A stretch of 41,789 bases of DNA from Spirochaetota bacterium (GTDB taxonomy: Bacteria; Spirochaetota; B62-G9), in the NCBI GenBank assembly GCA_003645695.1, contig QNBN01000002.1, positions 1 to 41,789 of the forward strand, written 5' to 3'. Every line of letters begins with the position of its first letter. Positions within the stretch are counted from its first letter, which is position 1. This document shows positions 17,759 through 21,359 of this stretch, piece after piece. The notes beneath the pieces were generated by a model. The model was given only the letters and a program-made list of their open reading frames with translations, searched no databases and was not told where the DNA came from. A program made the translations under genes and the position numbers.

Positions 17759-17830
17759 TTATTCCTCCTCTTCGATCTTTATTCCTTGGAATTATTTCTC
17801 TATAAAGTAAAAATGTTTTAGAGCTACAAG

Positions 17831-17859
17831 AAATTACTAAAAAATAGCAAAAATATCAA
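17831..17859 (-). promoter_or_regulatory. Candidate sigma70-type promoter for tuf (TTGATA-17-TAATTT)
   Basis: Minus strand reads AAAATATTGATA, a 17-nt spacer, then TAATTT, about 70 nt upstream of the tuf ATG. The A/T-rich upstream flank resembles the one at the rpsL promoter candidate. Confidence 0.35.
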
Positions 17860-17933
17860 TATTTTTTTTATAATCAATATTTATAGTCAGATGTTTTTTT
17901 AAAAAAACATTCAATAATTTTATTAATAAATAG

Positions 17934-20135: not shown

Positions 20136-20606
20136 TTACCAGCGATAATGAGCAAAAGCCTTGTTAGCCTCTGCCATCTTCCTGGTATCTTCCTTTTTCT
20201 TAATTGATGCACCGGTATTATTATAAGCATCCAACAATTCATCTGCTAATTTCTCGCTCATGCTCTTACCGGTCCTTGCTCGCGCGAAACCTATTATCCA
20301 TCGAATCGCCAGAGCTACCTTCCTTTCAGGCCTTACTTCTATAGGAACCTGATATGTAGCACCACCAACCCGTCTTGACTTAACCTCTAGCTCTGGTTTC
20401 ACATTTTCTATAGCCTTATTGAAAACTTCAATCGCTGGCTTTTTAAGCCTCTCTTCAATAATTTCAAAGGCATTATATAGGAGTTTTTGAGCTACACTCT
20501 TCTTGCCATCCCACATAAGGCTATTTATAAACTTTGAAACCAGCAACGAATTGTATTTAGGATCCGGAACTAAATAATTCTTCTTTGCATAATGTCTTCT
20601 TGGCAC
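20136..20606 (-). CDS. rpsG: 30S ribosomal protein S7
   Basis: [15 protein letters not shown]...[17 protein letters not shown]...AFAHYRW, typical S7. GTG start 5 nt after GAGGTG. Confidence 0.96.
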
Positions 20607-20620
20607 TTTATCACCTCATA

Positions 20621-20652
20621 CAAAAAATTAGCCGGTTTGCGCAGAAACCGGC
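20621..20652 (-). terminator. Intrinsic-terminator-like hairpin abutting the rpsG RBS
   Basis: Minus-strand RNA is GCCGGUUU-CUGCGC-AAACCGGC followed by UAAUUUUUUG. An 8-bp GC-rich stem in otherwise AT-rich DNA. The U-tract ends 14 nt before the rpsG GTG. Confidence 0.6.
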
Positions 20653-20653
20653 C

Positions 20654-20700
20654 CCACCAAGGGACCTATCCAACCCATGTTGGTGGTTTCACCTAGGTTA
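20654..20700 (-). promoter_or_regulatory. GC-rich structured leader element upstream of rpsG (hairpin CCACCAA/UUGGUGG with a possible pseudoknot)
   Basis: Minus-strand ACCUAGGUGAAACCACCAACAUGGGUUGGAUAGGUCCCUUGGUGG. The 7-bp stem is 20654-20660 with 20680-20686. Loop UAGGU can pair with upstream ACCUA. It directly adjoins the terminator hairpin. Confidence 0.45.
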
Positions 20701-20785
20701 CTTACAGTTAATGTTATTTTTATAATACGTATTTAACTGCTATTCTATTTTAAGTTAAATATTTACTAAATGAATTACCCCCATT

Positions 20786-20814
20786 TATATACTAAATCTT
20801 TTATGAAATGGCAA
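20786..20814 (-). promoter_or_regulatory. Candidate promoter inside the rpsL-rpsG spacer (TTGCCA-17-TATATA)
   Basis: Hexamers with 17-nt spacing on the minus strand, about 85 nt upstream of the GC-rich element. AT-rich context makes false positives likely. Confidence 0.3.
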
Positions 20815-20984
20815 CAATTTAGTTTATTAATTACAATATTATTTAAAAACCTCTAATATCTTTAGGATTTAAAACTTAAAGGATTGAAGTAAGACAAATA
20901 TATAACAGAAACACTATACTTTAGACATAAATTATCTGACAATAAGATATATAAGGTTCCTAAAAAAAACAACTAAATATTTAT

Positions 20985-21359
20985 TTAAGCCTTTGGCTTT
21001 TTAACACCATATTTAGAACGAGCTTTCTTTCTATTTTCTACACCAAGGGTGTCCAATGCACCCCTAATAATATGGTATCTAACACCAGGCAAATCTTTTA
21101 CCCTCCCACCTCTTATTAACACTACTGAGTGTTCCTGTAAATTATGCCCTATACCTGGTATGTATGCAGTTACTTCAATACCATTGGTCAACCTAACTCT
21201 TGCAACTTTACGCAAGGCAGAATTTGGTTTTTTTGGAGTAAAAGTCATAACCCTTGTGCAGACTCCTCTCTTTTGTGGACAACCCTTTAAAGCAGGCGAA
21301 CTCGTCTTTTTTATAACCTGTTTTCTTCCCTTTCTGATTAGCTGATTAACTGTTGGCAT
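20985..21359 (-). CDS. rpsL: 30S ribosomal protein S12
   Basis: [12 protein letters not shown]...[16 protein letters not shown] is canonical S12. Start set to the ATG at 21359 after AAAGAGG. The track's TTG adds 6 unlikely residues. Confidence 0.96.

Follow-up and report, generated by a model that had tools for sequence, protein, structure and literature searches.

A conserved RNA element in the rpsL-rpsG spacer of an uncultured Spirochaetota lineage: a candidate transcription attenuator with ribosomal protein S7 as its proposed effector

The 3' end of the rpsL-rpsG spacer in the window (the whole 41,789-nt stretch of Spirochaetota DNA that was analysed) carries a conserved RNA element of about 80 nt, which is a lineage-specific candidate cis-regulatory RNA of the ribosomal protein leader/attenuator kind, with a structure that makes it a new and undescribed variant. 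The element is predicted to adopt either a long irregular hairpin followed by a terminator-like hairpin or a three-way junction that takes up the 5' strand of the terminator, and there is good reason to regard it as a regulated transcription attenuator in the rpsL-rpsG mRNA. The fuller statement, a transcription attenuator between rpsL and rpsG with S7 as the proposed effector, is put at an even chance. In functional terms, the element is probably an undescribed feedback switch for the synthesis of S7, EF-G, and EF-Tu.

Gene order and the rpsL-rpsG spacer

The minus strand of the window carries rpoC, rpsL, the spacer, rpsG, fusA, and tuf in that order. The genes downstream of the element are solely rpsG-fusA-tuf, and S7 is the sole RNA-binding ribosomal protein encoded directly downstream of it. 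The gene coordinates (Table 1) confirm the 378-nt minus-strand spacer given in the preliminary description, and its account of AT-rich DNA interrupted by a GC-rich island of about 80 nt holds as well, with a GC content of 19 to 24% in the spacer versus about 51% at positions 20620 to 20699. Its premise that rpsL and rpsG normally lie tens of nucleotides apart proved inaccurate. Across 150 unrelated loci, the length of this spacer is bimodal (3 to 42 nt or 115 to 280 nt, with a median of 163 nt), and extended S12-S7 spacers have been reported for about one-third of bacterial genomes (Fu et al. 2013, PMC3616713); given this bimodality and the extended spacers in the literature, 378 nt is at the long end of the range but is not anomalous per se. 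Other AT-rich gaps of about 260 to 330 nt are present in the same gene cluster of the window. Conservation within the 5' part of the spacer (about 285 nt) is confined to the closest relatives. Small open reading frames in the spacer were considered as coding sequences and rejected, as they are not conserved and loop indels break their reading frames.

Table 1. Coordinates of the features discussed in the text (window positions)
Feature	Positions	Strand	Remarks
rpsL (S12), 124 aa plus stop	20985..21359	(-)	ATG at 21359; upstream neighbour; rpsL of the relatives also called as 124 aa
rpsL-rpsG spacer, 378 nt	20607..20984	(-)	AT-rich except for the 3' element
Promoter-like block AACTAAATTGTTGCCATTTCATAAAAGATTTAGTATATAAAT, containing TTGCCA-17-TATATA	20783..20824	(-)	Resemblance to consensus only
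Conserved RNA element, about 80 nt	20621..20699	(-)	Match to covariance model R1, 99 bits, E=4e-27
Long irregular hairpin (proposed anti-antiterminator/sensor), about 43 nt	20656..20698	(-)	P0, inner pairs, and P2
P0	CUAGG 20696-20692 with CCUUG 20662-20658	(-)	Plus 2 outer pairs
Inner pairs	G20690-C20663, A20689-U20664, C20686-G20665, C20685-G20666	(-)	
GAAACC, P1 5' strand	20685..20690	(-)	Alternative partner GGUUUC (20649-20644); invariant except for one base in L183
P2 hairpin CCAAC-AUGG-GUUGG	20670..20683	(-)	Compensatory double changes at 4 of 5 pairs
P3ext hairpin GGUCCC-UUGGU-GGGGCC, predicted antiterminator arm	20650..20666	(-)	Consumes GCC of the terminator 5' strand
Terminator-like hairpin GGCCGGUUU-CUGCGC-AAACCGGCU	20630..20653	(-)	About -12 kcal/mol; 9 pairs
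U-tract UUUUUU	20622..20627	(-)	Preceded by invariant UAA
Shine-Dalgarno GAGGUG (20617-20612) and rpsG (S7)	20136..20617	(-)	GTG at 20606

Conservation and distribution of the element

Relatives were found by protein search with S7, which gave a graded series labelled as Spirochaetota or Spirochaetes MAGs with contig DNA for twelve. The element was compared in 12 sequences from uncultured hosts, several of them closely related. A covariance model built from ten sequences matches 12 distinct syntenic spacers at 67 to 101 bits (E values of 1e-18 to 1e-28). In all 12 homologues, whose S7 proteins are 72 to 96% identical to that of the window, the element precedes rpsG-fusA, and only the last 80 to 95 nt or so of the spacers align, the remainder being unalignable. 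The conservation of the island is far beyond chance. Alignment of relatives' spacers with a check for covariation, the course suggested in the preliminary description, bore out the element in 12 spacers, with covariation in helices P2 and P0.

Every relative with an S7 identity of at least 72% has a long spacer (131 to 494 nt) except L175 (78%), the contig of which starts at rpsG and so carries no spacer. The relative at 71% identity (L181/L182) has an rpsL-rpsG spacer of 20 nt that lacks the element and marks the edge of its distribution; in L182, tuf and rpsJ come directly after rpsG, without fusA. Among the matches listed in S7 scans of genome and metagenome collections, no relative exceeds 68% identity, and all lack the element. 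Beyond the 12 spacers, the covariance model had no match in about 700 kb of other str-operon loci, among them those of Spirochaetia and Clostridia, and the element is not repeated elsewhere in the window. Two exact-pattern matches in viral contigs were set aside as unrelated chance hairpins. In the GC-rich relative L180, a mazE/pemK toxin-antitoxin pair (365-942) lies directly upstream of rpsL, a position occupied by rpoC in the other relatives.

A terminator-like hairpin adjoining the rpsG ribosome binding site

The nine-pair stem near the 3' end of the element (20653-20630), which is followed by UAAUUUUUU ending at 20622, is the strongest terminator-like site in the whole window of about 40 kb, in which other such sites occur at roughly chance frequency. 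This agrees with the GC-rich hairpin and U-tract abutting the rpsG ribosome binding site that had been described from the window; the interval between the U-run and the rpsG GTG does contain the Shine-Dalgarno sequence, as stated, but measures 15 nt and not 14 nt. The claim that no promoter could fit behind the terminator also holds more widely. In 10 of the 12 homologues, 13 to 15 nt lie between the end of the element and the start codon, GUAUGAGGUG is conserved downstream, and the gap from the U-tract to the Shine-Dalgarno sequence is too short for a promoter, so that the essential downstream genes depend on read-through. The element is 75 nt from the start codon in L173 and 38 nt in L176, with the stem and U-tract unchanged, and retention of the U-tract at these distances favours an action on transcription rather than one close to the ribosome binding site.

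Apart from one U-G pair in L180, all 12 homologues have the same stem sequence, and the loop is variable; because the stem is invariant, it has no covariation support of its own. The U-run is interrupted (UUUAUU) in two of the 12 homologues, and this interruption, together with the UAA between the stem and the U-run, makes the efficiency of the terminator uncertain.

The hairpin-plus-terminator fold

Covariation across the homologues favours a long irregular hairpin with the terminator downstream of it. This hairpin is the minimum free energy (MFE) fold in nearly all homologues, and the MFE structure of the full-length RNA consists of this hairpin and the terminator. In addition to the compensatory changes in P2 (Table 1), changes in P0 (CAAGG/CCUUG) are compensated in L169, L180, and L183, and the first outward pair extending P0 is C-G, G-U, U-A, or A-U among the homologues. 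Four invariant inner pairs (G-C, A-U, C-G, and C-G) connect P0 to P2, and the terminator starts 3 to 9 nt after the long hairpin. Taken over the alignment, the hairpin-plus-terminator fold forms pairs in 96% of cells and has seven pairs changed on both sides, values matched by none of 500 shuffles, and slid controls collapse. The preliminary description had instead proposed a 7-bp hairpin (CCACCAA/UUGGUGG) with an H-type pseudoknot between ACCUA and UAGGU. That arrangement is restricted to the window and its closest relative and pairs in 68% of cells, which is no better than shuffled sequences, and it was rejected on these comparative counts.

An alternative three-way junction

The segment GAAACC is a direct repeat of the 3' strand of the terminator, and the strand GGGGCCGGUUUC is complementary to both arms of the hairpin base, GGUCCC and GAAACC. 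In GGGGCC-GGUUUC (20655-20644), GGGGCC can pair with GGUCCC to form P3ext and GGUUUC can pair with GAAACC to form P1. Helices P1, P2, and P3ext together make up a three-way junction with joints of 1, 3, and 0 nt, in which all eight bases of the terminator 5' strand are consumed. The competition of GAAACC for GGUUUC, initially judged to be only weak, is one arm of this complete junction, which with GGUCCC/GGGGCC included is nearly isoenergetic with the terminator fold.

In most homologues, forced-constraint folding placed the junction within about 2 to 4 kcal/mol of the hairpin-plus-terminator fold. For the full-length RNA, the hairpin and terminator are preferred by a few kilocalories per mole; when the RNA ends just before the 3' strand of the terminator, the junction is the MFE structure in 11 of the 12 homologues, and it is not favoured in L180. 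By these calculations, the two folds exclude each other and are close to equal in energy. All eight nucleotides of the terminator 5' strand are captured by upstream sequence in the window, as they are in 7.6% of dinucleotide shuffles of the upstream part, and the energy gained by capture is -8.7 kcal/mol, compared with -3.3 +/- 2.4 kcal/mol for the shuffles. The junction is predicted, on the basis of folding, to be a mutually exclusive antiterminator that sequesters the 5' strand of the terminator, as is expected of an attenuator.

The pattern of conservation can be read in the light of both folds. GAAACC, GGUCCC, GGGGCC, and both strands of the terminator are invariant, and P2, the loops, and the junction bases vary. 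Since each invariant segment has two alternative partners, its invariance is explained and no ligand pocket need be assumed. Variation in the terminator, P1, and P3ext helices is so slight that they have essentially no covariation support of their own. In L180 the middle C of GGUCCC is a U, and the partner G is an A in both P0 and P3ext; this single case, in which the change is compensated in both helices, is a hint that each of the two pairings is important. In L183, one mismatch in P1 is left uncompensated. Among the conserved bases, just two sets are accounted for by neither fold: the invariant CUAA (20628-20631) between the terminator stem and the U-run and a near-invariant unpaired A (A3 column 16, window position 20684) between GAAACC and P2. 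The attenuator layout first suggested from the window, in this case of a conserved rpsG-linked cis element, is supported by the anatomy of the terminator and by the conserved fold that sequesters it.

Transcription context and promoter-like blocks

No conserved promoter was found at a fixed distance upstream of the element in the homologues' spacers, and an independent small RNA (sRNA) or promoter just upstream of the element was rejected on this ground. In L171, L183, and L180, only about 50 to 85 nt separate the rpsL stop codon from the element, and this interval is GC-rich in L180; because so little room is left for a promoter in these three, the element is probably intercistronic in the rpsL-rpsG transcript. 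The promoter-like block AACTAAATTGTTGCCATTTCATAAAAGATTTAGTATATAAAT, which recurs in L161 and in part in L164, is located some 85 nt upstream of the element and could serve as an internal start for rpsG-fusA, in which case the element would be in the leader. Right after the rpsL stop codon (about 20935-20966, minus strand), a T-rich stretch, TTGTTGTTTTTT...TATATATCTTAT, is conserved in L161, L164, L167, and partly in L169 and could be a promoter (TTGTTG-16/17-TATATA) or a signal at the 3' end of rpsL; as a promoter, it too would place the element in the leader of an internally started transcript. The fusA-tuf spacer contains AAAATATTGATATTTTTGCTATTTTTTAGTAATTTC (17830-17865, minus strand), an A-tract with a TTGATA-17-TAATTT promoter-like block, which is nearly invariant in the otherwise unalignable fusA-tuf spacers of eight relatives and is probably a strong dedicated tuf promoter.

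Proposed mechanism

The attenuator would set how much transcription proceeds into rpsG-fusA (and tuf). During transcription, the long irregular hairpin (P0, inner pairs, and P2) would form first, and the next 13 nt, GGGGCCGGUUUC, could then insert between its arms (GGUCCC and GAAACC) to give the junction of P1, P2, and P3ext. The junction would hold the entire 5' half of the terminator, and RNA polymerase would read through. If the long hairpin were held closed, GCCGGUUU would be free to pair with AAACCGGC, and transcription would stop at the U-tract. The long hairpin would thus serve as anti-antiterminator, the junction as antiterminator, and the last hairpin with its U-run as terminator. Free S7 is proposed to hold the long hairpin closed, which would provide negative feedback as with other ribosomal protein leaders. 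A protein may not be needed for the terminator fold, because the full-length RNA favours this fold without any factor. Termination itself, and the regulation of the switch, are what we infer from this architecture.

In its most specific form, the proposal is that this is the first S7-responsive attenuator and a new class of ribosomal protein leader, in which S7 clamps the hairpin of about 43 nt and blocks the 13-nt strand-insertion route to the junction; this version is advanced tentatively, with the balance somewhat against it. If the S7 clamp were true, autoregulation at the S12-S7 junction would have been reinvented outside the Gammaproteobacteria with a different mechanism; feedback would have been invented independently at the same operon junction, through termination instead of translational coupling. 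The element is a concrete, compact (about 80 nt), and testable two-state candidate in a deep uncultured lineage.

Identity of the effector

If the element is an attenuator, the odds that S7 is the effector are even or slightly better. S7 is the most likely candidate in view of the position of the element and the E. coli precedent, where S7 is a known repressor acting in the rpsL-rpsG spacer (PMC10931766, PMC3616713). Sequence mimicry of 16S rRNA, as a mode of S7 recognition, was not detected. Local alignments of the homologues to E. coli rrsH scored no higher than shuffled sequences in 11 of 12 cases, and the alignment score of L161 was reached by 3.5% of shuffles. None of the best rrsH matches of the homologues fell at the S7 site, which we take to be h28/h29/h43 at about nt 1340 to 1392. 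A likeness noted by eye between GGUGAA, AUA-GGUCCC, and CCUUG and 16S nt 1370 to 1392 was dropped because the alignment is at the level of shuffles and the columns vary among homologues. The motifs of the E. coli S7 site (AGUAA/UGAAN and CCA/UUGGR) are likewise not conserved among the 12 homologues: at the U of GUGAA (A3 column 9), U, C, and A all occur, and UUGGA is present in only three.

As the preliminary description had supposed, the element matches no described Rfam family. Rfam 15 gave no match at an E value of up to 10 on the element strand of the window, none at up to 0.1 in 10 homologous loci, and no relevant match in seven comparison loci from Clostridia and Spirochaetia. The E. coli K-12 S7 operator (L185, NC_000913.3 3473900-3474750) likewise had no match, even at E values of up to 1; Rfam holds no model of that site, and the negative scans are therefore uninformative about membership in the family of the E. 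coli operator. In the full-text literature, no S7 leader was found beyond that of E. coli and an old cyanobacterial proposal (PMC10931766).

Alternative explanations

The alternatives that remain, from most to least probable, are an effector-free kinetic switch, a constitutive leaky terminator or processing site, a translational operator as in E. coli, and a DNA operator. The first is an attenuator that answers to something other than S7, namely, another protein, a small molecule, or, with no ligand at all, the speed or pausing of RNA polymerase (through NTP or ppGpp levels or temperature), which would decide between junction and terminator. This is unlikely, but a ligand-free kinetic sensor is feasible because the two folds differ little in energy and transcription fixes the order in which they form; the failure to detect rRNA mimicry also speaks for it, and with EF-G and EF-Tu encoded downstream, sensing of growth rate or nucleotides would make physiological sense. 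For a small molecule the case is poorer, and the earlier suggestion of a riboswitch-like leader is unlikely to be correct in this sense, because there is essentially no invariant unpaired pocket, the invariant bases lying in the alternative helices and the junction and loop bases (A3 columns 9 and 31 to 33 and the loops) being variable, and because the gene context is exclusively rpsG. All 12 copies stand before rpsG-fusA and never before the metabolic or transporter genes with which riboswitches are associated. No known riboswitch model matches the element, and the precedent among ribosomal protein leaders is for the encoded RNA-binding ribosomal protein to be the ligand (PMC7247131).

It is somewhat less likely again that the structure is constitutive, either as a leaky rpsL terminator that fixes the ratio of upstream to downstream expression or, for example as an RNase III target or protective hairpin, in the processing or stability of rpsG-fusA mRNA. 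The full-length MFE structure is simply two hairpins, the terminator stem does not covary, spacers contain promoter-like blocks, and L173 has 75 nt including promoter-like sequence after the terminator, all of which would suit such a role. A plain terminator, however, would be free to covary, yet GAAACC, GGUCCC, and GGGGCC do not vary and show exact complementarity to the 5' half of the terminator. The lack of promoter room in 10 of the 12 homologues, which leaves essential genes in need of read-through, also counts against a constitutive structure. Moreover, S12 and S7 are needed in a 1:1 ratio, and a fixed drop from S12 to S7 is hard to rationalise on that account.

A translational operator like that of the E. 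coli str operon, with S7 bound to the two-hairpin structure to block initiation at rpsG and the U-run incidental, is improbable. The intergenic position is the same as that of the E. coli S7 operator (PMC3616713), and the proximity of the element to the start codon in 10 of the 12 homologues, along with the conserved GUAUGAGGUG, would fit. Against it stand L173 and L176, in which stem and U-tract are unchanged at a distance from the start codon. No conserved pairing with the Shine-Dalgarno sequence was found, the E. coli spacer has no terminator, and E. coli-style coupling of S12 and S7 translation is impossible across spacers of such lengths that are full of stop codons.

That the element is not a cis-acting RNA, with the palindrome GCCGGTTT-N6-AAACCGGC serving as the DNA operator of a transcription factor or with an sRNA gene ending at the terminator, is highly improbable: both palindrome arms are invariant without covariation, as in protein operators, and the invariant TAATTT that follows the stem is identical to the -10-like hexamer in the conserved tuf promoter block, but P2 and P0 show the covariation of RNA helices, the element keeps a fixed orientation and position with respect to rpsG, the sRNA lacks both a conserved promoter and, in L171, L183, and L180, much space for one, and a promoter based on TAATTT was rejected because no -35-like hexamer lies 16 to 18 bp from it.

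Comparison with known systems

Autoregulation by S7 in E. coli is textbook knowledge, and the translational operator of S7 (uS7) in the S12-S7 intercistronic region of the str mRNA was reportedly the subject of work by Saito and Nomura in 1994. Like that operator, the element is a structured RNA between rpsL and rpsG (the E. coli downstream genes being rpsG-fusA-tufA), and both would presumably match the synthesis of S7 and EF-G to demand. The E. coli operator is characterised by 5'-AGUAA/5'-UGAAN and 5'-CCA/5'-UUGGR motifs around a three-stem junction (alignment of Fu et al. 2013, PMC3616713), and the window contains GUGAA and CCA...UUGGA, an echo of these motifs that is not conserved across the homologues. 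In contrast to the E. coli spacer, which is 96 nt long, folds into a three-stem junction without a terminator, and acts via translational coupling, the spacers that carry the element are 131 to 494 nt long and have a terminator-like hairpin and a different helix layout. Homology between the two was judged by eye, as Rfam 15 has no model of the E. coli site.

The predicted logic is the same as that of the attenuating ribosomal protein leaders of Firmicutes (L20/infC, L10, L13, L19, and L21), namely, a protein-binding helix, a competing antiterminator, and an intrinsic terminator placed before the gene of the presumed ligand. The element differs from these leaders in that it has no sequence or structural homology to them and no Rfam match, in the ligand gene (S7) and the lineage, and in its antiterminator, a three-way junction predicted to form by strand insertion between the arms of the sensor hairpin. 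Attenuators have also been described in rpsL leaders and, in streptococci, for an rpsG-fusA element (Naville and Gautheret 2010, PMC2965389; Rfam rpsL_psuedo and rpsL_ricks). These are likewise terminator-based, located in the str operon, lineage-specific, and structurally diverse; unlike the element, they lie upstream of rpsL or between rpsG and fusA and not between rpsL and rpsG, and none matches it.

For cyanobacteria, a structure in the S12-S7 spacer was proposed by Meng et al. in 1989, as cited in PMC3616713 and PMC10931766. As described there, it resembles the present case in its long rpsL-rpsG spacer and in placing an S7-related structure outside the Gammaproteobacteria; compared at the level of that description, it differs in that the proposal rests on similarity to 16S rRNA, none of which is detectable in the element. 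According to reviews, S7 autoregulation is unstudied beyond E. coli, and the long S12-S7 spacers of many bacteria are without known structure (PMC10931766, PMC3616713).

A different motif was observed in Clostridia. In eight loci (L006, L010, L014, L031, L042, L064, L067, and L070) with rpsL-rpsG spacers of 150 to 230 nt, the last 60 nt or so before rpsG share GAGUACCGAUGAAUUAAU...UUAAGGAGGGAAG, which directly precedes the gene and had no Rfam match in the five loci scanned (L014, L031, L042, L067, and L070). It may be another undescribed S7-associated element, and because Clostridia carry a different conserved motif at the same place, the rpsL-rpsG junction may be a recurrent site of RNA regulation.
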